Virus genome (UHGV): UHGV-0250493
DNA length: 26,823 nt
DNA from: a virus
Direction: 5' to 3' (one strand)
The notes beneath the pieces were generated by a model, which did not search any database, was not told where the DNA came from, and saw nothing but the letters and a program-made list of their open reading frames with translations. This document shows, one piece after another, positions 2,045 to 14,946 of this stretch; position 1 is the first letter of the stretch, and every line of letters begins with the position of its first letter. A program made the position numbers and the translations under genes.

Positions 2045-2862
2045 AACTGGAAGATTTACCGAAATACTACTCCCCAAAATCCCCCGGCCTGACCGATGCA
2101 TCGGCCTCAACGTCAAAAGATGCGCTGAGTATCACTGATGTGATGGCCGCGCAGGGCATGACACAGAATCGGGCTGAGATGGGTTTTTCTGCGTTCCTGG
2201 GGAAAATGGGCATCAGTATGAATGACAGGGCGCGGGCAACAGAATTACTGGCAGATTATGCACTCAGTCGGTGCGATCGTGTGGCGGCGTTGAGAAAACT
2301 TCCGGCAGAAATAAAACCGGTAGTGATGCGCATTATGGCTTCGTATGCGTTTGAAGATTATGCCCGTAGCGCGGCGAGCAAAAAACAGTGCCCCTGCTGT
2401 CACGGAAAAAAATTTATTGAAAGCGAGGTTTTTACAAACAAGATCCAGTATCCGGATGGTAAGCCACCAGTGTGGGCAAAGTGCACAAAAGGCGTGTATC
2501 CGTCTTACTGGGAAGAATGGAAAAAAGTCAGGGAGGTGGTAAAAGTTGCCTGTCCGGAGTGTGGCGGAAAGGGTGAGGTTTCCACCGCCTGTAAGGATTG
2601 CCGTGGGCGTGGTGTCGCCATTCATCGTGAAGAGTCGGTAAAACGTGGTATGCCTGTTATCAGAGACTGCCAGCGTTGTGGTGGTCGTGGCTGTGAAAGG
2701 CTGCCATCAACGGAGGCATTTAATGCCATATGCAAAGTGACGAGTGCTATCACGCTTGATACGTGGAAAAAATCAGTGAAACGCTTTTACGATACGTTGG
2801 TGGTTCGGTTTGACATTGAAGAGGCATGGGCGGAGCGGCAGTTAAAGAGGGTAACGCGATAG
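2041..2862 (+). CDS. Q: late-gene antitermination protein Q
   Basis: 273 aa with start overlapping the rusA stop (ATGA). Multiple CxxC zinc-finger pairs. Followed directly by a lambda-like PR'/tR' region. Confidence 0.8.
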   Translation: MKLEDLPKYYSPKSPGLTDASASTSKDALSITDVMAAQGMTQNRAEMGFSAFLGKMGISMNDRARATELLADYALSRCDRVAALRKLPAEIKPVVMRIMASYAFEDYARSAASKKQCPCCHGKKFIESEVFTNKIQYPDGKPPVWAKCTKGVYPSYWEEWKKVREVVKVACPECGGKGEVSTACKDCRGRGVAIHREESVKRGMPVIRDCQRCGGRGCERLPSTEAFNAICKVTSAITLDTWKKSVKRFYDTLVVRFDIEEAWAERQLKRVTR

Positions 2863-2867
2863 TGTTG

Positions 2868-2895
2868 TTGATTTTTCCCGAATCTGTGGTAAATT
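2868..2895 (+). promoter_or_regulatory. PR'-like late promoter (-35 TTGATT, 16 nt spacer, -10 TAAATT)
   Basis: Sequence GGTAAATTTGCTCTAACGATGGG closely resembles the lambda PR' -10/start region (GGTAAATTTGACTCAACGATGGG). Lies directly after Q. Confidence 0.55.
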
Positions 2896-2943
2896 TGCTC
2901 TAACGATGGGCGTTTTATGCCTGACGTTAGAAGATTTTTTACA

Positions 2944-2967
2944 CCCCGCCGCCTGGCGGGTTTTTTA
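2944..2967 (+). terminator. tR'-like intrinsic terminator
   Basis: GC hairpin CCCGCC-GCCT-GGCGGG followed by TTTTTT, about 65 nt downstream of the PR' -10. Confidence 0.6.
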
Positions 2968-3088
2968 TGACTGAAATCGCGTCAGTACAGTAAACGCGCT
3001 GGTGGCGGTGAATACCTGTCTTTCAGCTTGCTGGCTTTTTCGACAAGAGTTATTGGTGTGTCACGTTAACCGGAAAAGGGAAAAAGAC

Positions 3089-3436: not shown

Positions 3437-4486
3437 ATGCTTAATACTGTAAAAATATCCAGTTGTGAGTTAATCAACGCCGACTGCCTGGAATTTATCC
3501 GGTCGTTACCCGAAAATTCTGTTGACCTGATAGTCACGGACCCGCCGTACTTTAAAGTGAAGCCTGAGGGCTGGGATAACCAGTGGAAGGGCGACGATGA
3601 TTACCTGAAGTGGCTGGACCAGTGTCTGGCGCAGTTCTGGCGGGTGCTGAAACCTGCCGGAAGTCTTTACCTGTTCTGTGGTCATCGCCTGGCATCTGAT
3701 ATCGAAATCATGATGCGTGAACGCTTCAGTGTGCTGAACCATATTATCTGGGCGAAGCCGTCCGGACGCTGGAACGGATGCAACAAGGAAAGCCTGCGGG
3801 CGTATTTCCCCGCCACAGAGCGCATTCTGTTCGCGGAACATTATCAGGGGCCGTATCGTCCGAAAGATGCCGGGTATGCGGCGAAGGGCAGTGCACTGAA
3901 ACAGCATGTGATGGCCCCGCTGATTTCTTACTTTCGTGATGCGCGCGCGGCCCTGGGGATAACGGCAAAACAGATTGCAGATGCCACAGGAAAGAAAAAC
4001 ATGGTGTCGCACTGGTTCAGTGCCAGTCAGTGGCAGCTACCGAACGAAAGCGATTATCTGAAATTACAGTCGCTGTTTGCCCGGGTGGCAGAAGAGAAAC
4101 ATCAGCGCGGTGAACTGGAAAAGCCCCACCACCAGCTGGTGGATACGTATACGTCACTGAACCGGCAGTATGTGGAGCTGCAGAGTGAATATAAGCATCT
4201 GCGGCGGTATTTTGGTGTGACGGCGCAGGTGCCGTACACGGATGTGTGGACACATAAACCGGTGCAGTTCTATCCCGGGAAACATCCGTGCGAAAAACCG
4301 GCAGAAATGCTGCAGCAGATAATCAGCGCAAGCAGTCGTCCGGGTGACCTGGTTGCAGATTTTTTTATGGGCTCAGGTTCAACGGTAAAAGCGGCACTGG
4401 CGCTCGGGCGTCGTGCGATTGGCGTTGAACTGGAGACCGGACGTTTTGAGCAGACAGTCAGGGAAGTTCAGGATTTAATCGTTTGA
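3437..4486 (+). CDS. DNA methyltransferase (N6-adenine/N4-cytosine class, DPPY motif)
   Basis: 349 aa with the catalytic motif DLIVTDPPYF near the N-terminus and a C-terminal AdoMet-binding-like FFMGSGST motif. No adjacent restriction endonuclease gene. Confidence 0.85.
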   Translation: MLNTVKISSCELINADCLEFIRSLPENSVDLIVTDPPYFKVKPEGWDNQWKGDDDYLKWLDQCLAQFWRVLKPAGSLYLFCGHRLASDIEIMMRERFSVLNHIIWAKPSGRWNGCNKESLRAYFPATERILFAEHYQGPYRPKDAGYAAKGSALKQHVMAPLISYFRDARAALGITAKQIADATGKKNMVSHWFSASQWQLPNESDYLKLQSLFARVAEEKHQRGELEKPHHQLVDTYTSLNRQYVELQSEYKHLRRYFGVTAQVPYTDVWTHKPVQFYPGKHPCEKPAEMLQQIISASSRPGDLVADFFMGSGSTVKAALALGRRAIGVELETGRFEQTVREVQDLIV

Positions 4487-4535: not shown

Positions 4536-4611
4536 GGCCCTTTAGCTCAGTGGTGAGAGCGAGCGACTCATAATCGCCAGGTCGCTGGTTCAAATCCAGC
4601 AAGGGCCACCA
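4536..4611 (+). tRNA. ileZ: tRNA-Ile2 (anticodon CAU, lysidine type; may be annotated as tRNA-Met)
   Basis: Cloverleaf folded by eye: acceptor GGCCCTT/AAGGGCC, D-arm GCTC...GAGC, anticodon CAT at 4569-4571, T-loop TTCAAAT, encoded CCA. Near-identical to E. coli ileX. Confidence 0.85.
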
Positions 4612-4618
4612 TCACATA

Positions 4619-4695
4619 CCGCCATTAGCTCATCGGGATAGAGCGCCAGCCTTCGAAGCTGGCTGCGCGGGGTTCAAGTCCCCGATGGCGGTCCA
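4619..4695 (+). tRNA. argN: tRNA-Arg (anticodon UCG)
   Basis: Acceptor CCGCCAT/ATGGCGG, anticodon stem CCAGC/GCTGG, loop CTTCGAA (anticodon TCG at 4653-4655), T-arm CGGGG-TTCAAGT-CCCCG, encoded CCA. Confidence 0.8.
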
Positions 4696-4752: not shown

Positions 4753-5120
4753 TGTGGTTGCACTCCTGTTGTTTCTGGTGGTGATGGTGGACTTCAGCAG
4801 CCGGATAATGTCGGTGCTGTCTGATGGTGTTTTGGTGGCGGGTGTGTGGTTGTTGCTTTCCCGTTGCTGAAAAAGAAAGCATCAGGCGATTAGCAGGGTA
4901 TCAGTTACCCGTTGAAATTTTTAAATACCTCACAATTCCACAGCTTGATGATTGTCTGGCTGCCGGAGAATTTGTTAAAAATTACATCGCATGGTGAATC
5001 CCCCTGTGCGGAGGGGCAATCAGCGAGTAGGTATATGGGATAATCGCGGATTCAGGTGCTGGTACTGAATTCACCGGGAGGCACCCGGCACCATGCAATG
5101 GCACATAGCGCCACTCTCCA

Positions 5121-5155
5121 GCCCCTCTCCGGAGGGGCTGTTTATATTGATTTTG
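5121..5155 (+). terminator. intrinsic terminator in the toxin-slot region
   Basis: Perfect 7 bp stem GCCCCTC-TCCG-GAGGGGC followed by the T-rich tract TGTTTATATTGATTTTG. Confidence 0.5.
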
Positions 5156-5174: not shown

Positions 5175-5510
5175 TTATGGACTTTGTTGTTTTAGTCCAT
5201 AAGGACATATTTGCAGAGTGCAACGGTTATTAAAGCATTCATTCAATACGTTATCTGTATTTGTAGGGCATTCCTGGCTGTTTTTGATTAAATTCCAGAA
5301 TGTTTTATTGAATGGCACTACGTTGTAAATGGTTACAGGTAGCACTTTGTTATTGAGCATGATGCCTGTGTGAGTCAGTGTAAATATACTTTCAGGAGGT
5401 AAGAAAGCATCCGATTGATACCAGATTATTAATTTTATTTTACTCCATATGACTGAAAAAGATATTCCGCATGATGGCTGGATAACTGTATCAATCACAA
5501 TCCACTTCAT
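5175..5510 (-). CDS. hypothetical protein, 111 aa, in AT-rich DNA (Cys-rich C-terminus)
   Basis: Minus-strand ORF with ATG at 5510 preceded by AAGGAA 5 nt upstream, stop at 5175-5177. Plausible promoter upstream (TTTACA, about 15 nt, TATACT). Local GC is far below the flanking phage genes. No family recognised. Confidence 0.5.
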
Positions 5511-5770
5511 TTAGTTTCCTTGTTTATGCCTTGCTGGTGATGTTCTGAAAAGTATAAATGATATTTTTGATTGTAAACCATAGAGCAGAATTATTTTTCT
5601 GATGTTGTTTATTGTTTATTTAAATGCAGGGTGGTTTATATCTCGTCTTGTAGTTTATCCATGCATATCTGCTTGATGATGAGGTTTTTATTTAAGGTAT
5701 GGTTTTGTTTTTTTTCTGTATTACATGTCAGGTATTTTAAAGAATCATTTTTCAGATGGTGGAAAGAACC

Positions 5771-7627
5771 ATGGCATTTAAACACTATGATGTTGTCAGG
5801 GCGGCGTCGCCGTCAGATCTTGCGGAAAAGCTGACACATAAACTGAAAGAGGGCTGGCAGCCGTTTGGTAGTCCGGTGGCCATAACCCCTTATACCCTGA
5901 TGCAGGCGATTGCAGCAGAAGGTGATGTGGTCGTCAGTGGTGCAACTGAGCCGGAGTGGTACTACGTCATCGTACTGGCCGGGCAGTCCAATGCCATGGC
6001 TTACGGTGAAGGGCTTCCGCTTCCGGATTCATACGATGCGCCCCATCCGCGCATTAAGCAACTGGCCCGTCGTAACACAGTGACTCCCGGTGGCGAAGTA
6101 TGCGTATTTAACGACATCATTCCTGCTGACCATTGTCTGCATGATGTTCAGGATATGAGTACGATTAACCATCCCCGGGCTGACCTGAGCAAAGGGCAGT
6201 ACGGTTGTGTCGGACAGGGCTTACATATTGCCAAAAAACTGCTTCCGTATATCCCTAATAATGCGGGGATCCTGCTGGTACCATGCTGTCGTGGTGGTTC
6301 GGCATTCACCAAGGGCACGGAGGGGACATTCAGCGAGTCCACGGGGGCCAGTCAGGATTCGGCTCGCTGGGGAGTGGGTAAGCCGTTATATCAGGATCTG
6401 CTTTTCCGCACGAAGGCAGCATTGCAGAAAAACCCGAAAAACGTTTTGCTGGCGATATGCTGGATGCAGGGGGAATTTGACATGAGCGCTGCCACCTACG
6501 CACAGCAACCGGACCTGTTCACGGCCATGCTGAAGCAGTTCCGTACTGACCTTTCCGGATTTAACGCGCAGTGCCATGGCGGCAGTGCTGCAGTTGTACC
6601 GTGGATTTGTGGCGACACGACGTATTACTGGAAAAACACATACGGCACACAGTATGACTCCGTCTACGGCGCGTACAAAAACAGGGAGAGCGACAACGTT
6701 TTCTTTGTGCCGTTCATGACCGACGGTAACGGCAACAACACGCCCACCAACTTACCGGCAGAAGACCCGGATATTGCTGATGCAGGTTATTACGGCGCGC
6801 AATCCCGTAGTAATGGTAATTGGGTATCGTCAAATCGTCCGACACATTTCAGTTCATGGGCGCGCAGGGGCATTATTTCGGATCGCCTGGCAACCGCTAT
6901 TCTGAACGCAGTTGGTCGAACCAGCGCCTTCATCAGCGGTACCGCACCGGAGATTAAACCCTCGCCCGGCGGCGACACGCCATCGGGGCCGTCTGATGGT
7001 GACACATCCGTTCGTACAGTCTCCCTGCTGCCGACAGCCGGAGAGGCTGCTGCGCAGGGCTGGACCATCACCGGCGGCAGTGTTGCGCTGGAAGATGGTG
7101 TGTTTAAGGTTACCAAGCAGAGCAATAAAACCTGGTCCCTGATGCATCCGGTGGATGACGCAGTCTCCCTGCTGACACGGGGTGGCAGACTGAGCTGTAA
7201 GTTTCGACTGTCAGGCGCACTGACCAACAACCAGTTCGGTCTGGGAATTTATCTGTATACCGATGTAGCGTTACCTGACGTCGTGGCGATGACCGGGACT
7301 GGTAACCCGTTCCTGATGTCGTTCTTCACCCAGACCACAGACGGCAAACTGAATCTGATGCATCACAAGAAAGCCGGAAACACAAAGTTGGGCGAGTTCG
7401 GGAATTACAGTAACGACTGGCAGACGCTGGAGCTGGTGTTCACCGCCGGCAGTGCCACGGTTACTCCGAAACTGAATGGAGTGGCTGGCCCGGCATTCCA
7501 GGTCATAAAAGACAGTCTGACACTGGGGCTGAATGCGCTGACGCTGACGGATATTACCAAAAATGCAGCGTATGGCGTTGAGATAGAAAGTCTGGTGCTG
7601 GAGATAAATGCACCGGCATCATCATAA
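5771..7627 (+). CDS. nanS-p: prophage 9-O-acetyl sialic acid esterase (NanS-p type: DUF1737 N-terminus plus SGNH esterase plus C-terminal domain)
   Basis: N-terminal MAFKHYDVV...EGWQPFGSP (DUF1737-like), then the SGNH-type motif VIVLAGQSNAMAYG. Position matches the large ORF downstream of the toxin slot in Stx-type prophages. Start taken at ATG 5771 (GGAAAG RBS) rather than track start 5756. Confidence 0.8.
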   Translation: MAFKHYDVVRAASPSDLAEKLTHKLKEGWQPFGSPVAITPYTLMQAIAAEGDVVVSGATEPEWYYVIVLAGQSNAMAYGEGLPLPDSYDAPHPRIKQLARRNTVTPGGEVCVFNDIIPADHCLHDVQDMSTINHPRADLSKGQYGCVGQGLHIAKKLLPYIPNNAGILLVPCCRGGSAFTKGTEGTFSESTGASQDSARWGVGKPLYQDLLFRTKAALQKNPKNVLLAICWMQGEFDMSAATYAQQPDLFTAMLKQFRTDLSGFNAQCHGGSAAVVPWICGDTTYYWKNTYGTQYDSVYGAYKNRESDNVFFVPFMTDGNGNNTPTNLPAEDPDIADAGYYGAQSRSNGNWVSSNRPTHFSSWARRGIISDRLATAILNAVGRTSAFISGTAPEIKPSPGGDTPSGPSDGDTSVRTVSLLPTAGEAAAQGWTITGGSVALEDGVFKVTKQSNKTWSLMHPVDDAVSLLTRGGRLSCKFRLSGALTNNQFGLGIYLYTDVALPDVVAMTGTGNPFLMSFFTQTTDGKLNLMHHKKAGNTKLGEFGNYSNDWQTLELVFTAGSATVTPKLNGVAGPAFQVIKDSLTLGLNALTLTDITKNAAYGVEIESLVLEINAPASS

Positions 7628-9499: not shown

Positions 9500-9586
9500 A
9501 TGAGTGCTGAACTTATTCGGGCAATGGCATTTGCCATTCGTATTGTGGCCATTGCTGTTCTGGTCTGGGCAATCCGTTGGTGGTGA
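9500..9586 (+). CDS. small membrane peptide D, 28 aa
   Basis: ATG 9500. [28 protein letters not shown]. Stop TGA lies 1 nt before the Rz start. Confidence 0.4.
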
Positions 9587-9587
9587 T

Positions 9588-10055
9588 ATGAACCGTGTTC
9601 TGTGTGTGGTGATTATTGTCCTGCTGGTAGCCTGTGGTGTGCTTAGTCTGGGGCTGAATCATTACCGCGATAACGCCATCACCTACAAAGCGCAGCGCGA
9701 TAAAAAAGTCAGTGAGCTGAAACTGGCGAACGCGACAATTACTGATATGCAGATACGCCAGCGTGATGTCGCTGAACTTGATGCCAGATACTCGAGGGAA
9801 TTAGCCGATGCGAGAGCTGAAAATGAAACTCTGCGTGCTGATGTTGCCGCTGGTCGTAAGCGCCTGCGGATCAACGCCACCTGCTCCGGTACCGTGCGTG
9901 AAGCCACCGGCACCTCCGGCGTGGATAATGCAACCGGCCCCCGACTGGCAGACACCGCTGAACGGGATTATTTCATCCTCAGAGAACGGTTGATGACAAT
10001 GCAGAAGCAGCTGGAAGGGGCACAGGACTATATCCGCACTCAGTGCCTGAACTAA
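9588..10055 (+). CDS. Rz: Rz i-spanin
   Basis: ATG 9588 with GGTGG upstream. N-terminal TM helix ([16 protein letters not shown]) followed by a long charged coiled-coil-like region. Contains the embedded Rz1 frame. Confidence 0.8.
9823..9993 (+). CDS. Rz1: Rz1 o-spanin (lipoprotein, embedded in the +1 frame of Rz)
   Basis: [15 protein letters not shown] lipobox followed by a proline-rich tail, wholly inside Rz. An alternative start at 9808 is possible. Confidence 0.75.
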
Positions 10056-10357
10056 GTTTTGCTGATGCGCCGTATCGTCGCTGTATTCCCTCATTAACAG
10101 AGACCGCAGCCCGACAGGGAGACTCCTCTGCGCGAGTGTGCGGGGATAATCAAAAACGATACACACCGGGGTTTACCGCGTTAACGGAGCGCGGCGTTGT
10201 CCCCTCATAGTCGCCAGTCCGGTGCGATGGTGGAAGAAACAGGACGATGTGTTACCTCGCAAGCCCTGTTATGTCATGTGTCTGATTTGTGATTTAAGTC
10301 GGATAATTGTCGTTGCCATTAAGCAGAGGATTGATGACCGACAGGGCGGCATTGTTA

Positions 10358-10372
10358 GAATAAGACTTATTC
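10358..10372 (+). promoter_or_regulatory. palindromic operator-like site GAATAAG-A-CTTATTC upstream of the TonB-like gene
   Basis: Perfect 7-1-7 inverted repeat overlapping a putative extended -10 (TGTTAGAAT, 10353-10361), 22 nt upstream of the start codon. AT-rich, loosely Fur-box-like. Confidence 0.35.
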
Positions 10373-10393
10373 TTATCTGTGCGGGGAATGAAA

Positions 10394-10720
10394 ATGAAAA
10401 GAAATCTTCCGTTAATTATTTTGTTGTCTTCTCTGGTTATGGGCTGTACGCAACATAAAACAGATATGCCCCGACAGTTGGTTAAGGCATTACCACAATA
10501 TCCGGCCTATGCAGCGGCAAATTATATAAAGGGACGGGTTGATGTGAGGTTTGATATTGGTGCTGATGGTACTGTCACCCGAATTGAGTTTATTCGTTCA
10601 GAGCCGCACCATCTGTTTGATGAGCAGGTTGTAAAGGCGATGGCAAAATGGCGATTTGAGAAGGACAGGCCGTGTAAAGGCGTGAAGAAAACGTTTATCT
10701 TTAGTCCTTCTGCACACTGA
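10394..10720 (+). CDS. lipoprotein with TonB C-terminal domain
   Basis: Signal peptide with lipobox (LVMGC). The mature part PQYPAYAAANYIKGRVDVRFDIGADGTVTRIEFIRSEPHHLFDEQVVKAMAKWRF aligns closely with E. coli TonB residues about 160-230 (PQYPARAQALRIEGQVKVKFDV...REVKNAMRRWRYEPG). Confidence 0.75.
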   Translation: MKRNLPLIILLSSLVMGCTQHKTDMPRQLVKALPQYPAYAAANYIKGRVDVRFDIGADGTVTRIEFIRSEPHHLFDEQVVKAMAKWRFEKDRPCKGVKKTFIFSPSAH

Positions 10721-10851
10721 TTATTTCATCAGAAATTAATTATCACTCTGTTGTTATTCTGTACATCCCGGCAGGGTAAGTATTGTTCCGTCGGATATGA
10801 AGATGAAATATTGTTGGAGGACAGTGGGTACCTGCTCCTGTAACCGAACGT

Positions 10852-11052
10852 TCATTTCTCGTTATTTGTCATGCTGGCCGGGCGCAGATGCGTTGCATCT
10901 GTTGCCAGCCTTCTCCTGCAGGCTTCAATAACCCACGCTGAAAAGTTACCGGACCCTTTATGCTCAAGGGCGATGTTGATCTGTTCAATCATGTGATTGG
11001 GGAAACGGATATTGCGGGTTGTGGTTCTGCGGGTACGGTTTTTCGATGACAT
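10852..11052 (-). CDS. ribbon-helix-helix (CopG/Arc-like) small DNA-binding protein
   Basis: 66 aa from ATG 11052 (AAGGAA RBS) to stop at 10852-10854. MSSKNRTRRTTTRNIRFPNHMIEQINIALE...NFSAWVIEACRRRL fits the RHH beta-alpha-alpha pattern. Position upstream of terminase matches ylcI/ynfO. Confidence 0.55.
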   Translation of the reverse strand: MSSKNRTRRTTTRNIRFPNHMIEQINIALEHKGSGNFSAWVIEACRRRLATDATHLRPASMTNNEK

Positions 11053-11093
11053 ATTTATTTCCTTTACTGATTGCCATATGACGGGGATTTTAC

Positions 11094-11459
11094 ATGGCTG
11101 AGCTTCGTACACTCCAGAGCAGAATCAAAACACTGAATACCCGACGGGTGAATATTCTGAAGGGTGAACAGCGTCGTGTCAGTGGCAGTGCACGTGTTTC
11201 CCTCAAGCGTCATATCTGGCTCAGGGACGCCGGGCAGTGCCGTCTCTGTGGTCGTGTGGTTGACCTCTGTGACAGTGAACTCGATCACCGAATTGCACTT
11301 CAGTTCGGTGGTGGTAATGAGGAGACGAATCTCTGGACGCTCTGTACCGAATGCCATCGACAAAAGTCTGCTCGTGAAGCGGCGAGTGATATGCCGGACC
11401 CGACGCTGCCGGAGGTGTCCGGAGGTAGTGGCAGAGAGGACGACATCATCGGACTGTAA
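11094..11459 (+). CDS. HNH endonuclease (terminase-associated type)
   Basis: 121 aa with CxxC...DHRIALQFGG...NLWTLCTECHRQK HNH motif. GGGGA RBS. Sits next to the putative cos region and TerS, as in HK97-like phages. Confidence 0.8.
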   Translation: MAELRTLQSRIKTLNTRRVNILKGEQRRVSGSARVSLKRHIWLRDAGQCRLCGRVVDLCDSELDHRIALQFGGGNEETNLWTLCTECHRQKSAREAASDMPDPTLPEVSGGSGREDDIIGL

Positions 11460-11547: not shown

Positions 11548-11682
11548 AGGGCAGTTAACATGTTAACTGGCTGCCCGGGCATTTTTGCGGTTTTTATCTT
11601 TATTATTCAGTTTGTTGTGCGGAAAAAATGTTAACAGGCTTTTTCAGCAAATGTTAACCAGGCAGCAGTTAACATTTGCGGC
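11548..11682. repeat. cluster of GTTAAC-containing palindromes (putative terminase-binding/cosB-like region)
   Basis: Perfect 18 bp palindrome CAGTTAACATGTTAACTG (11553-11570), AAATGTTAACAGG (11626-11638), and inverted pair AAATGTTAAC...GTTAACATTT (11650-11678), all between the HNH and TerS genes. Confidence 0.5.
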
Positions 11683-11749
11683 ATGAGACGCCGGGAAAAA
11701 TGGGCTGAACCATACCCGGCTGAGTGCGTTCTGGACCCGGGAGGAGGCT

Positions 11750-12340
11750 GTGCTGACAACGCAAAAACGAAAATTTGCGCTGGCGCTCATGTCCGGGAAA
11801 AACAAAACAGCGTCAGCCATTGCCGCCGGTTATTCGGCGAAGACCGCCAGGGTTAAAGGCTCGCAGCTGGCAAAAGATCCTGAGGTGCTTGCGTTTATAG
11901 CCCGTAAACAATGCGAGACGGTGGAGGTGGATGAGGTTCCTGTTTACCGGCAGAAAAAATCAGAGCAGGAGGATAAACCCCGTCGCCGTGAGGCGGCTGC
12001 AATACCACAGCCGGACGAAAACAATCTGGAGATGCCACCGTCCGCGGTGATGTCTCCTGGTATTGAATATATGGAGGATGGTCTTCCCGATCCGGTGAAA
12101 GCCATGGGGCGGATCCTGGTGGAAAACCTCTGCATTGATCCGAAACTGGCACTGGATGCGGCCTGGCGTCTGGCGCAGTTCACGCACCATAAAAAAGGGG
12201 ATACCGGGAAAAAATCGGCAAAAGATGATGCCGCGAAAAAAGCGGCTAACCGTTTTGCGGTGCCACCGCCACCCCGACTGGTGGTGAATCCGCCACCAGA
12301 GGTTCAACCCGGCTCCAGTCCAGAATACGCAGTTCTTTGA
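11750..12340 (+). CDS. terminase small subunit (C-terminal about 17 codons probably altered by a rearrangement junction)
   Basis: GTG start with GGAGGAGG RBS. N-terminal region KNKTASAIAAGYSAKTARVKGSQLAKDPEV typical of TerS. The 3' end overlaps, on the opposite strand, the end of the inverted portal fragment. Confidence 0.7.
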   Translation: MLTTQKRKFALALMSGKNKTASAIAAGYSAKTARVKGSQLAKDPEVLAFIARKQCETVEVDEVPVYRQKKSEQEDKPRRREAAAIPQPDENNLEMPPSAVMSPGIEYMEDGLPDPVKAMGRILVENLCIDPKLALDAAWRLAQFTHHKKGDTGKKSAKDDAAKKAANRFAVPPPPRLVVNPPPEVQPGSSPEYAVL

Positions 12341-12734
12341 TCTGCCCCCGGGCATTACGGATTTTCAGCACCACCGTATTGCCATGACGCAGTTTGGCGT
12401 TCAGCCACAGTTCAAAAAACTGGATGCGGTTCTGCTGGGCGTTGGGACGACGACAGAGGCGGGCAATATCCCCCCGGCGCGTTTCCCTGCGTATCCCATG
12501 CGCATCCGTCTGCATAAGACGCAGCCGCATTTTGGCGATATCCTGGGATATCAGCGAAATACATGCAAACACCGCATGAAAGGAGAGGACGGCTTCAGGA
12601 TCGGCTTTCACGCCCTGCTGCCAGGCGCCGGAAAAGGGCTCAGCCACCGCCTGAAACAGGCTGGTCCAGCCCGCCTCTCTTACGTCACGTCCTGATTTCT
12701 GGTTTTTTCGGGTTCGCCGTAAAAGGTTCCACAT
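12246..12734 (-). CDS. portal protein, N-terminal portion only (gene interrupted, inverted relative to its C-terminal part)
   Basis: ...SGAWQQGV...AVFACISLISQDIAKMRLRL...GNTVVLKIRNARGQIKELRILDWSRVEPLVAD matches the HK97-family portal N-terminus. After about position 12288 the frame runs 13 unrelated codons to a stop. Confidence 0.6.
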   Translation of the reverse strand: MWNLLRRTRKNQKSGRDVREAGWTSLFQAVAEPFSGAWQQGVKADPEAVLSFHAVFACISLISQDIAKMRLRLMQTDAHGIRRETRRGDIARLCRRPNAQQNRIQFFELWLNAKLRHGNTVVLKIRNARGQIKELRILDWSRVEPLVADSPPVGVAVAPQNG

Positions 12735-12901
12735 TCGCCATGCTCCGCATCACGTTTCTTTTTCTGACCTGCCGGACGTCGCACCGTGATGTACTCCGCC
12801 TTTCCCAGGCGAACCAGCACCTCCGCACACGGCTGTGCCACATCACGGATATCCCCGGCCCGGGCATCATGCGTGCCCTGCAGATATCGGATCTTTGCCA
12901 T
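12680..12901 (-). CDS. hypothetical small ORF between capsid and portal-N genes
   Basis: 73 aa ORF with weak RBS, overlapping the portal-N start in another frame. May be spurious. Confidence 0.2.
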   Translation of the reverse strand: MAKIRYLQGTHDARAGDIRDVAQPCAEVLVRLGKAEYITVRRPAGQKKKRDAEHGECGTFYGEPEKTRNQDVT

Positions 12902-12945
12902 AACCTGTTACGGGAGGCGCACGCCTCCCGTCCTCCTTATCAGAC

Positions 12946-14883
12946 TCAGCCGCCGGACGCACTGCCGTAGTTCACTCCGGTGATCACCGCCACCGCCGCA
13001 GTACGGCGACGACGCCAGTTGATCCAGCGCTCCGCACGGATGGCCACGCTGCCTGTCTGGAACATGGAAACCAGCTCCACCGGGGACGGCGTGGTACTGT
13101 CGCCGGTCGGCTCAGACTGCATTTCCAGTGATGCCTCGCGGGACATATCCACTGCCACGCCGCCGTCATCCGCCAGATAAATATCCGGGGCATTCACCAG
13201 CACCAGCTGGTCACCCACGTACTGGGAGACAATCACCGGCAGCCCCTGGAAGGAGCCACCCAGCAGGGTCATGTCCGGGTATTCCTTCTGACCCAGCGCA
13301 TTTTTACGCATGGACAGTGCCAGGGCATTGGTGCTGGACATCAGCCAGACCGCACCGGTGGGCTGCAGGTTTGCTGCCACAAACTGTCCAAACGCAGCCT
13401 CTGCATCCGCATCCGGGTTACCGGTTGATGCCGTGCCCTTCACATCATGGGTGATGGACGCCGGGGAGACATCTGCCACTGCGGCTTTTTTCGGGTCCAC
13501 AAAGTCTGTATCCAGACGCGCCACCACCGCTTCCGCCAGCGCATTACGGACCAGTGCATCAGCAGCCGGACTGGAAAAACGGATCAATTCTTCCGTCAGT
13601 ACCGCAATGGCCGACACCTTCGCATGACTGAAGGTGATGGATTCAAAATCAAACTTCGTCAGGGGTTTTGCCTTACCCTCACCCACCCAGCCGGCAGCAC
13701 CGCCGGACACCTGGGCGTGCACACGGATATTGAATGGCACCTGACGAAGTGCAGGGATCCCGCCCTGACCAAATCGCCCGATAATGGTCTGCGGACGCAG
13801 GTAATCAATAAAGTCCTGTGCGTATTCCTGATATTCAGACAGGCTGCCTGCCCACTGCGGATCCGTGGTGGTCCCCGCGCCCACTGCCGATTTCAGGACA
13901 TGATGCAGACGACTGTCATCCGGATACTGACGACGGGCCACTTCCAGGGCTTCAGATCGGACGCCTTTAGCCGCAGCCAGCGATTTGGCAAAGCGGGCGA
14001 AGCCAATCCCCTTATCCAGTTTCTGCTCCACACGGATCACCGGCGCAGAAGCCACCGCGGCCACATTCCCGTTACCGGCCTGTTTCACCGGCTGCGCCGT
14101 GGCGGCCTTACCGGCTTCCAGTTCACGCAGGCGCTTCAGGTGCGCATCCACCTGACGGATTTCCGCTGCGGTGTTGTCGTAATGCTCTTCCTCCTCCACA
14201 TCCAGCGTGCGCCCTTCCTCTGCGGCTTTGGTCATGACCTCCTCAAGGGAGGCTGCCAGCGCTGCACGCTTGTTTTCAAAACTTTTAATCTGTTCGCCAA
14301 TATTCATTATGGTCTTTTCCTTATGAAAAACGGTTGTTGACTGTGCCGCAGCGCCGGCAGAAGATGCGATTTTCACCACCGGTTTCCGGTTGCCGGACGC
14401 GGCAGAAAACGGGCGGTCGTAAGATTTAATGGTCCGGATGGTGCATTCCGCATTCGCGGGCACGGTGACGGCAGACACCTCCATCAGTTCCCAGCGCAGA
14501 AAATGCAGTCCGCCTCCGTCCAGAAAGGTGTATTCATGGGGACGGAAGCCCACGGACAGCCCCCTGACCAGCCCGGTCTTAATGGCCGCCCAGACCTCAT
14601 CCAGCCGGGCAGCCAGTTGCGACGGCATATCCGGTACGGGCTTCACCAGTGTTGCCGTGATTTCCAGCCCTTCGCTGACCCGGCGCACCGTACACTGCCC
14701 CACCGGGCGGGAATGGTCATGCTGCCAGAGAAACGGTATCGCACTGCCAAACTCCGCGCCCTCCGGCTCCAGGATGTCACCATCCCGATCCGGAGAAGGC
14801 GTTGACGCAATCCCGGTGATCACCCGTTCATCCTCACTGAAGGATTTCACCGTCAGCAGGGAACAGGCCCGTTTAAGAGTCAC
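12946..14883 (-). CDS. prohead serine protease - scaffold-like linker - HK97-fold major capsid protein fusion
   Basis: 645 aa. The N-terminus has prohead protease motifs (PFLWQHD, GLSVGF, EVSAVTVPAN). The middle is a charged coiled-coil-like region. The C-terminal about 300 aa has an HK97-type capsid pattern. GTG start with AGGAGG RBS. Confidence 0.8.
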   Translation of the reverse strand: MTLKRACSLLTVKSFSEDERVITGIASTPSPDRDGDILEPEGAEFGSAIPFLWQHDHSRPVGQCTVRRVSEGLEITATLVKPVPDMPSQLAARLDEVWAAIKTGLVRGLSVGFRPHEYTFLDGGGLHFLRWELMEVSAVTVPANAECTIRTIKSYDRPFSAASGNRKPVVKIASSAGAAAQSTTVFHKEKTIMNIGEQIKSFENKRAALAASLEEVMTKAAEEGRTLDVEEEEHYDNTAAEIRQVDAHLKRLRELEAGKAATAQPVKQAGNGNVAAVASAPVIRVEQKLDKGIGFARFAKSLAAAKGVRSEALEVARRQYPDDSRLHHVLKSAVGAGTTTDPQWAGSLSEYQEYAQDFIDYLRPQTIIGRFGQGGIPALRQVPFNIRVHAQVSGGAAGWVGEGKAKPLTKFDFESITFSHAKVSAIAVLTEELIRFSSPAADALVRNALAEAVVARLDTDFVDPKKAAVADVSPASITHDVKGTASTGNPDADAEAAFGQFVAANLQPTGAVWLMSSTNALALSMRKNALGQKEYPDMTLLGGSFQGLPVIVSQYVGDQLVLVNAPDIYLADDGGVAVDMSREASLEMQSEPTGDSTTPSPVELVSMFQTGSVAIRAERWINWRRRRTAAVAVITGVNYGSASGG

Positions 14884-14893
14884 ATCAGCCTCC

Positions 14894-14922
14894 TGAAAAT
14901 AAAAAAACCGCCGGAGCGGTTC
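14894..14922 (-). terminator. intrinsic terminator between TerL and the capsid gene (minus strand)
   Basis: On the minus strand, hairpin AACCGC-TCCG-GCGGTT followed by TTTTTTTATTTT, immediately before the AGGAGG RBS of the capsid gene. Confidence 0.5.
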
Positions 14923-14946
14923 GTGATGGTTACAGTGTGAACAGGG

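Follow-up and report, generated by a model that had tools for sequence, protein, structure and literature searches.

We analyzed a 26,823-nt stretch of viral DNA (UHGV virus genome UHGV-0250493; a lambdoid E. coli prophage), referred to below as the window, and found that it carries, on the 3' side of its lysis genes, an intact gene for a predicted lipoprotein of 108 amino acids (aa), which consists of a signal peptide with a lipobox cysteine, a tether of seven residues and the C-terminal domain (CTD) of TonB. The gene belongs to an Enterobacterales family that recurs in one and the same prophage slot, evolves under purifying selection and is predicted to be Fur-repressed. The reading that we favor, tentatively and at slightly less than an even chance, is that the protein is an outer-membrane-tethered binder of TonB boxes that competes with TonB in the way engineered periplasmic TonB fragments do.

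The open reading frame (ORF) begins with an ATG at 10394, ends with the stop codon at 10718-10720 and is intact; in identical Escherichia coli prophages the same ORF is annotated by RefSeq as WP_000828071.1, 'TonB family protein'. A preliminary description of the window had placed the beginning of the element at 10331, a position that marks the promoter region but not the start of the coding sequence (CDS). The account that it gave of the product as a lipoprotein with the lipobox LVMGC stands. The protein begins with MKRNLPLIILLSSLVMGC, followed by TQHK. Lipoprotein signals were recognized by a rule of the PROSITE PS51257 type (a positive n-region, a hydrophobic h-region and the pattern [LVI][ASTVIM][GAS]C with the Cys within the first ~35 residues), and the product fits it with charged K2 and R3, a hydrophobic stretch L5-M16 and the lipobox L-V-M-G-C18. 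The lipobox Cys is invariant in a nine-member family alignment, and distant homologues have lipoboxes as well. The residue that follows it (position +2) is Thr19 in the window protein and S, T or A in its relatives, never Asp. Lipoproteins without Asp at +2 are sorted to the outer membrane in a Lol-dependent manner, and thus the window protein is predicted to reside there. Seven residues separate Cys18 from P26, the first residue aligned with TonB_C, and the 108-aa protein contains neither the membrane anchor nor the proline-rich spacer of TonB, as had been proposed. The gene is also AT-rich, with a GC content of 43.4% compared to 54.2% for the window.

The mature part of the protein is matched by Pfam PF03544 (8.6e-15, 55.4 bits at a curated cut-off of 24.6) and TIGR01352 (6.9e-15, 55.2 bits, cut-off 27.1). 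The CTD of E. coli TonB (1u07) matches it at 1.5e-15 over residues 26-104, and 30 of 79 positions (38%) are identical to TonB residues 153-231. An AlphaFold2 (AF2) model, built with a 21-sequence alignment, has a predicted local distance difference test score (pLDDT) above 96 across residues 30-100. It superimposes on 1u07, on TonB bound to BtuB (2gsk_B) and on TonB bound to FhuA (2grx_C) with a root-mean-square deviation (rmsd) of 1.1-1.2 Å over 76-83 columns and template-modelling (TM) scores, normalised to the target, of 0.88-0.92. The model thus has the alpha/beta architecture of the TonB CTD, a sheet of three strands with two helices. In the YP motif, Y36 is invariant and P37 is kept in at least 90% of the sequences. 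No match at E <= 0.001 was obtained in the BFVD viral structure library. The profile search and the structure prediction that the preliminary description had suggested as checks both gave a clear TonB_C assignment, in agreement with what it had claimed for the mature part. The window protein is a member of the TonB_C family and not a bona fide TonB energy transducer, because anchor, spacer and equivalog score all fail: the best full-length TonB equivalog, NF008084, scores 73.7 bits, where 315 are required, and aligns through its C-terminal part only.

The CTD of TonB pairs with the TonB box of a transporter by beta-augmentation on strand beta3, and every TonB-dependent transporter and every TonB-dependent colicin has a TonB box (Braun 2024 review). 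An overexpressed periplasmic TonB domain is reported to inhibit TonB-dependent iron import in E. coli (Howard et al. 2001, J Bacteriol 183:5885). Irreversible adsorption of phage T1 requires TonB and the proton-motive force, and Llp of phage T5 is a small, periplasm-facing phage lipoprotein that jams the TonB-dependent transporter FhuA. Infection by phi80 and killing by colicin M were reportedly inhibited by the periplasmic TonB domain as well. In the window protein, the seven-residue tether would keep the TonB CTD near the periplasmic face of TonB-dependent transporters, where it could bind, by beta-augmentation, the TonB boxes of transporters (FhuA, FepA, BtuB) and of TonB-dependent colicins, in competition with scarce genuine TonB. 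As there is no anchor or spacer linking it to ExbB-ExbD, the protein would dock but deliver no energy. A lipid-tethered, non-energised CTD located beside the transporters should thus compete with TonB and damp TonB-dependent entry: irreversible adsorption of the T1/phi80 type and import of group B colicins and microcins would be damped or blocked, and siderophore uptake would be reduced too, as a cost. Members of the wider family would be synthesized under iron starvation, together with the derepressed transporters, while in the E. coli prophage clade of the window a promoter palindrome, instead of a Fur box, may govern its synthesis, with late-operon read-through as a further possible source. 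The proposed competition with TonB is consistent with the fold, which is that of TonB bound to BtuB and FhuA, with the +2 residue and with the reported inhibition by periplasmic fragments.

The same inhibitory phenotype would be expected if the target were the TonB machine itself, i.e., if the protein formed a heterodimer with the TonB CTD or bound the periplasmic domain of ExbD and thereby trapped TonB at the outer membrane. Dimers are seen in crystals of TonB CTD fragments, the top structural match of the AF2 model is 1u07, and mixed dimers are said to have been offered as an alternative explanation of the inhibition caused by periplasmic TonB domains. However, strand-swapped heterodimers are uncertain at 38% identity, and the dimeric crystal forms were argued to be absent in vivo (Postle and colleagues, PMC3005593). 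We consider such sequestration of TonB or ExbD quite unlikely.

The TonB_C gene starts 338 nt 3' of Rz, on the same strand, in accord with the position after the lysis genes originally ascribed to it, and is followed by a ylcI-like gene on the opposite strand, an HNH gene and terS. No terminator-like sites were found in 9800-11200, which covers both the interval between Rz and the gene and the 3' side of the gene, and the downstream fold at 10715-10860 (z = 0.29) gives no terminator support. Because no terminator is predicted between Rz and the gene, late-operon read-through of the gene during lytic growth is likely. This arrangement bears on the possibility that the product is a lysis accessory or a spanin-like protein. 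In the PHROG scan, the protein matched only phrog_1267 (6e-42), 34172, 812 and 5155, the first of which is labelled lysis / Rz-like spanin, and the gene does lie 3' of Rz/Rz1, on their strand and with no terminator in between. On the other hand, complete Rz and Rz1 genes are already present in the window, the globular TonB_C fold is neither that of a proline-rich o-spanin nor that of a coiled-coil i-spanin, and the chromosomal homologues have no lysis genes nearby. These three observations largely rule out a spanin role, which we regard as very improbable; the phrog_1267 label was most likely propagated from the position of the gene.

The region of the gene matches 691 of the 5,426 complete E. 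coli genomes (about 13%), with up to four copies per genome, and the matching genomes include those with Stx1-converting and O157/O145/O103-type prophages. In IMG/VR, 220 relatives were found, and the loci of the first scan are near-identical E. coli copies only. Compared with the 72%-identical gene of the phage-21 type, the ratio of nonsynonymous to synonymous substitution rates (dN/dS) is 0.11, at a dS of 1.66 that is near saturation. A homologue of this type, LF82_160 of prophage Perceval (annotated as 'TonB fragment'), is transcribed eightfold above the prophage background in LB-grown LF82 lysogens; a table in the LF82 transcriptome paper lists it as an expressed moron, along with sitABCD of the same prophage. 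The earlier designation of the window gene as a moron is borne out only in part, by its deviant GC content and its patchy presence between conserved modules. The promoter-like site with an extended -10 may serve as a promoter active in lysogens, where expression was seen for the 72%-identical homologue, and a terminator of its own was not found in 9800-11200. That the gene might be a non-functional captured remnant of host tonB, as the words 'TonB fragment' or 'partial tonB-like' in some database records would have it, is hardly credible. The idea is refuted by the selection and conservation data, namely the low dN/dS across clades and a length conserved across 74 family proteins; identity to E. 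coli TonB of just 38%, a signal peptide and lipobox of its own and transcription of the homologue in a lysogen argue against it as well.

Exhaustive and profile searches delineated a family of proteins of about 107-135 aa, all named just 'TonB family protein' and restricted to Enterobacterales (E. coli, Klebsiella, Raoultella, Citrobacter, Serratia, Erwinia, Gibbsiella and Sodalis). With few exceptions, the members have a lipobox and a short tether of 7-14 residues, and they share motifs unlike those of true TonB (YPxYAxAN, SEPxHLFD and KWRFExxKP). In prophages, the slot flanked by lysis cassette and packaging genes is common to at least seven lineages with at least four terminase types: copies in this post-lysis slot are found in the window, in phage 21 (beside bor), in Klebsiella phage ST13-OXA48phi12.4, in Sodalis, in Citrobacter and in two metagenomic prophages. 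In the related-locus search, no viral relative of P0039 was found. Chromosomal copies lie beside lacZ-lacI in Raoultella/Klebsiella, in the minC...dsbB-nhaB-fadR region of Serratia, adjoining ahpCF in Gibbsiella-like genomes and adjoining araA or panE in Erwinia. Given the chromosomal copies and those in multiple prophage lineages, the gene is neither phage-only nor a recent fragment of host tonB.

Several observations were made on these loci in passing. In Raoultella ornithinolytica, a DUF1440 gene (locus L084, 6738-7301), coding for a YagU-like inner-membrane protein, lies directly 3' of the chromosomal TonB_C gene, and the Klebsiella phage with a TonB_C gene also has a DUF1440 gene (locus L003, 277-903), about 3 kb apart from it, which may be a coincidence or a functional link. 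Raoultella planticola has a second TonB_C copy among EAL/GAF and GNAT genes; because about 100 nt of its upstream sequence (locus L089, about 5880-6000) are shared with the Klebsiella-phage copy (L003, about 3880-4000), the sequences suggest that this second 'chromosomal' copy is a prophage remnant.

Upstream regions of the family were scanned for Fur sites with the classic 19-mer GATAATGATAATCATTATC and with the 7-1-7 motif TGATAATnATTATCA, and canonical Fur boxes were found at the equivalent place in 12 of the 16 loci examined. The classic box is matched at 18/19 positions in Serratia, 17/19 in the Sodalis prophage, 16/19 in Klebsiella R390, E. typographi and the Citrobacter prophage, and 15/19 in Raoultella, the P0034 prophage and Gibbsiella. 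The 7-1-7 motif is perfect (14/14) in R. lignicola, Klebsiella R390 and the prophages P0034 and Citrobacter, and is matched at 13/14 positions in three further loci and at 12/14 in four. The sites end 10-20 nt 5' of the start codon (50 nt in Serratia), and the best of them have shuffle p <= 0.0002. Among 321 control upstream regions, six reached at least 15/19; in number and in score these six agree with the loci of the family itself, although they were not traced one by one. The family is thus predicted to be Fur-repressed, and the family-wide boxes link it to the regulon of iron and TonB-dependent transporters.

These boxes give weight to an unlikely alternative, according to which the protein is a positive accessory of TonB-dependent iron acquisition that captures, pre-organises or protects TonB boxes and hands them to TonB, or stabilises or clusters the transporters, the prophage copy being a moron that, like sitABCD, serves the fitness of the host. 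Fur boxes of canonical form at the promoters of most members, as in iron-uptake genes, conserved chromosomal copies in several genera and the presence in Perceval of both the homologue and sitABCD as expressed morons all speak for such a helper. Against it, the sole reported experimental data, those on periplasmic TonB fragments, are inhibitory, and the loss of the canonical Fur box in two clades of E. coli prophages would be surprising in a helper of iron uptake. To our knowledge, there is no precedent for an energy-uncoupled TonB domain that aids transport.

The Fur boxes bear also on a role of the protein in the cell envelope or in virulence, with the TonB_C fold serving as a generic peptidoglycan- or protein-binding module, independently of TonB boxes, and reinforcing the envelope or conferring serum or stress resistance like Bor/Iss. 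The slot is the bor slot of lambda and phage 21, the latter of which has both genes adjacent to each other, the fold is reused outside transport (matches to GltG and AgmX), and affinity for peptidoglycan has been proposed for the TonB CTD. We nevertheless hold this role to be improbable, since the domain resembles the TonB CTDs of enterobacteria (E about 1e-15 to 1e-20, rmsd 1.1 Å) far more closely than it does the generic variants, and the Fur boxes point to the biology of iron and TonB-dependent transporters.

Both clades from E. coli prophages are without the canonical Fur box, which they have lost, and in the clade of the window a different perfect palindrome takes its place, where the relatives have their 7-1-7 boxes. 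This palindrome overlaps the extended -10 (TG at 10353-10354 and TAGAAT at 10356-10361), as had been observed before. Neither element is exceptional alone: three promoter-like sites were counted in 9800-11200, compared to 1.9 expected, and three perfect 7-1-7 palindromes in the window, compared to 1.5 in shuffles. The palindrome is present in 73 of 80 near-identical IMG/VR loci, a number that is uninformative, as the element is invariant only among near-identical E. coli copies. In phage 21, the extended -10 and the left arm (ATTGT[T/C]AGAATAAGAC) are conserved and the right arm is absent. Compared with the classic 19-mer, the best site of the window reaches 13/19 (shuffle p = 0.016), a score attained by about 4.7% of the control upstream regions; compared with the 7-1-7 motif, it agrees at 9/14 positions when the register is optimal (p = 0.30) and, as counted by eye, at 8/14 in the register of the palindrome. 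The upstream region of the phage-21 clade has no Fur box (at most 11/19 of the classic box and 7/14 of the 7-1-7 motif). Repressor control, possibly iron-responsive, had been put forward for the window gene; the data argue strongly for it in the family and only faintly in the window copy, whose palindrome suggests a retained operator with altered or weakened specificity. Transcription of LF82_160 in LB-grown lysogens is in line with a loss of iron control.

A side observation concerns the spacer between Rz and the TonB_C gene (10056-10393), which contains a block, beginning with CCGGTGCGATGGTGGAAGAAACAGGA, that is conserved in phage 21 and apparently partly duplicated there (locus L002, about 2790-3000). 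The phage 21 counterpart of the spacer is annotated as a 45-aa hypothetical CDS.

A number of points weigh against competition for TonB boxes as the function of the protein. The main weakness of that reading is that an uptake helper would account for Fur control and chromosomal copies no less naturally: it is components of uptake, more typically than inhibitors, that belong to the Fur regulon and have conserved chromosomal copies (here in Serratia, Raoultella/Klebsiella, Erwinia and Gibbsiella), inducing a general inhibitor of TonB in iron starvation looks costly, and chromosomal copies in several Enterobacterales weaken a purely anti-phage interpretation. That the TonB box of a transporter can be reached from a seven-residue tether is an assumption of the proposal. 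Residues implicated by TonB-box genetics are not conserved, since the equivalent of Q160 is L in the window protein and Y in the phage-21 type and that of R166 is Y, although TonB Q160L is itself a functional suppressor allele (Braun 2024 review). The PADLOC scan gave no hit for the window protein, and full-text searches of the literature turned up neither functional work on TonB_C lipoproteins, be they phage-encoded or chromosomal, nor an experiment on any member of the family. Finally, the receptor of the carrier phage itself is probably not a TonB-dependent transporter: the tip of its J protein is 99% identical to that of VT1-Sakai J and about 74% identical to lambda-like J proteins. Self-exclusion of the carrier phage was rejected for this reason, and exclusion would be aimed at other phages or at bacteriocins.

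A scenario that brings the regulatory and distribution data together with competition for TonB boxes, doubtful as it is at present, starts from an ancestrally Fur-controlled, lipid-tethered TonB docking domain common to Enterobacterales and their temperate phages. Such a domain may act as a gatekeeper on the universal TonB box: under iron starvation, with TonB-dependent receptors abundant at the surface, it would limit the use made of these receptors by TonB-dependent phages, colicins and microcins. Repeated capture by lambdoid phages would have turned it into a broad-spectrum exclusion moron that depends on no particular receptor, the operator having been rewired away from Fur in E. coli. Coordinates of the gene and of the features around it are given in Table 1.

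Table 1. The TonB_C lipoprotein gene, its upstream elements and the neighbouring spanin genes in the window
Feature	Position	Strand	Basis or remarks
CDS, 108 aa + stop, lipoprotein with TonB C-terminal domain	10394-10720	+	ORF calling, profile matches
Lipoprotein signal peptide MKRNLPLIILLSSLVMG and Cys18 (codon 10445-10447), predicted to be lipidated	10394-10447	+	Sequence
TonB_C domain, residues 26-104 (E. coli TonB 153-231)	10469-10705	+	Profiles, AF2; includes YP motif Y36-P37 and beta3-equivalent strand 94-103
Shine-Dalgarno-like GGGGA, 6 nt 5' of ATG	10383-10387	+	Sequence
Sigma-70 promoter-like site: -35 ATGACC (10334-10339), 16-nt spacer, extended -10 TGtTAGAAT	10334-10361	+	9/12 hexamer positions, TG present
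Perfect 7-1-7 palindrome GAATAAG-A-CTTATTC (GAATAAGACTTATTC), candidate operator	10358-10372		Overlaps -10 box and likely transcription start
Weak Fur-box-like 19-mer AATAAGACTTATTCTTATC, reverse orientation	10359-10377		13/19 to GATAATGATAATCATTATC; shuffle p = 0.016
Rz i-spanin gene, with embedded Rz1 o-spanin gene (9808-9993)	9504-10055	+	Pfam Phage_lysis 1.3e-49 (Rz), 1.7e-21 (Rz1)

Other parts of the window deserve brief mention. The Rfam scan found nothing within or near the TonB_C gene. Elsewhere, on the 3' side of the Q antiterminator region, there are two tRNA genes (4536-4608 and 4619-4692) and the small RNA STnc100 (4959-5149, 133.7 bits), followed by an ORF at 5175-5510 on the minus strand, which is the anti-adapter IraM according to the annotation of the identical EcPF7 prophage; these are further accessory cargo of the late region. 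A 623-aa DUF1737 / SASA-esterase / DUF6645 ORF (5756-7627), located 5' of the holin gene, is intact in the window, while the annotation of the EcPF7 prophage, which is otherwise identical, gives it a frameshift and an internal stop. A segment of 4,343 bp (12288-16630) lies inverted in place when compared with all complete E. coli genomes that match it. It comprises terL (14947-16608), a fusion of prohead protease and major capsid protein (12946-14883) and a 5' portion of the portal gene (12246-12734), all on the minus strand, and matches the genomes at 100% as one piece, at the collinear position and on the strand opposite to that of its flanks; none of the 1,258 matching genomes covers at least 80% of 11600-18600 in one place. 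Through the inversion, terS is truncated at its 3' end and the portal gene is split, with its C-terminal part at 16589-18439 on the plus strand; the breakpoints have no inverted repeats. A rare rearrangement, a mistake in assembly or the way in which the window was made could each account for the inversion, which would inactivate packaging.

If the mechanism proposed here is true, the protein is a natural dominant-negative TonB, a one-domain generic block of an energy-dependent gate that is used by many phages, group B colicins, microcins and siderophore-antibiotic conjugates, whereas Llp and Cor block one receptor. It could then affect host range in phage therapy, sensitivity to bacteriocins and to Trojan-horse antibiotics and the acquisition of iron in the gut, an influence made possible by the presence of the gene in a sizeable share of E. 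coli genomes, sometimes in multiple copies. The loss or replacement of the family Fur box in E. coli phage clades also provides a concrete case, open to testing, in which phages would have taken over an iron-regulated gene of the host and changed its regulation. What is new here is the family-wide link to Fur, which was unexpected, in a widespread candidate for a generic anti-TonB device. The gene has probably escaped study because E. coli K-12 is not known to carry it.

The gene and its similarity to TonB are already in databases, under the names 'TonB C-terminal domain protein' (phage 21) and 'partial tonB-like...' (CP-933N). With the CTD of E. coli TonB (residues ~153-239; 1U07, 2GSK chain B, 2GRX chain C), the window protein shares the fold, the 38% identity, the YP motif, the beta3 strand and the equivalents of F180, G186, F202, W213 and F230. 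It differs in having no anchor, spacer or link to ExbB-ExbD and in its predicted lipid anchor, which would be in the opposite (outer) membrane. It also stops five residues past the F230 equivalent, so that the last TonB strand is missing, and besides the changes at Q160 and R166, the helix motif is YPxYAxAN in the family compared to YPARAQAL in TonB. HasB, FusB and Vibrio TonB2 likewise have diverged TonB CTDs dedicated to particular partners, and the FusB CTD is among the top structural matches, but these proteins are full-length, anchored in the inner membrane and energy-transducing.

Small outer-membrane lipoproteins encoded by phages, a location that is predicted in the case of the window protein, include Bor/Iss of lambda and phage 21 as well as T5 Llp and Cor of phi80/N15/T1-like phages. 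The bor gene occupies the same slot, between Rz/Rz1 and the cos/terminase end, but is on the opposite strand and encodes an unrelated fold, Bor being a serum-resistance factor. Llp faces the periplasm, binds the periplasmic side of FhuA and blocks its functions; for this transporter, Cor is the sole entry in a review of superinfection exclusion from 2024. Homology to Llp, Cor or Bor was not found in the PHROG and fold scans run, in which Llp and Cor sequences were not directly compared. Llp binds the FhuA plug, acts allosterically and is specific for one receptor, whereas a TonB_C decoy would act on the TonB box common to all such transporters and to TonB-dependent colicins, and, in contrast to the phages with Llp or Cor, the phage carrying the window gene probably uses no TonB-dependent receptor. 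The closest parallel to the proposed function is provided by the engineered periplasmic TonB fragments (Howard, Herrmann, Stratilo & Braun 2001), which also place a TonB CTD in the periplasm without its energy-coupling part and are reported to inhibit TonB-dependent uptake. Those fragments are soluble, artificial and identical to TonB and must be overexpressed, whereas the window protein is natural, diverged and predicted to be lipid-tethered, and has a putative promoter of its own, ancestrally under the control of Fur.

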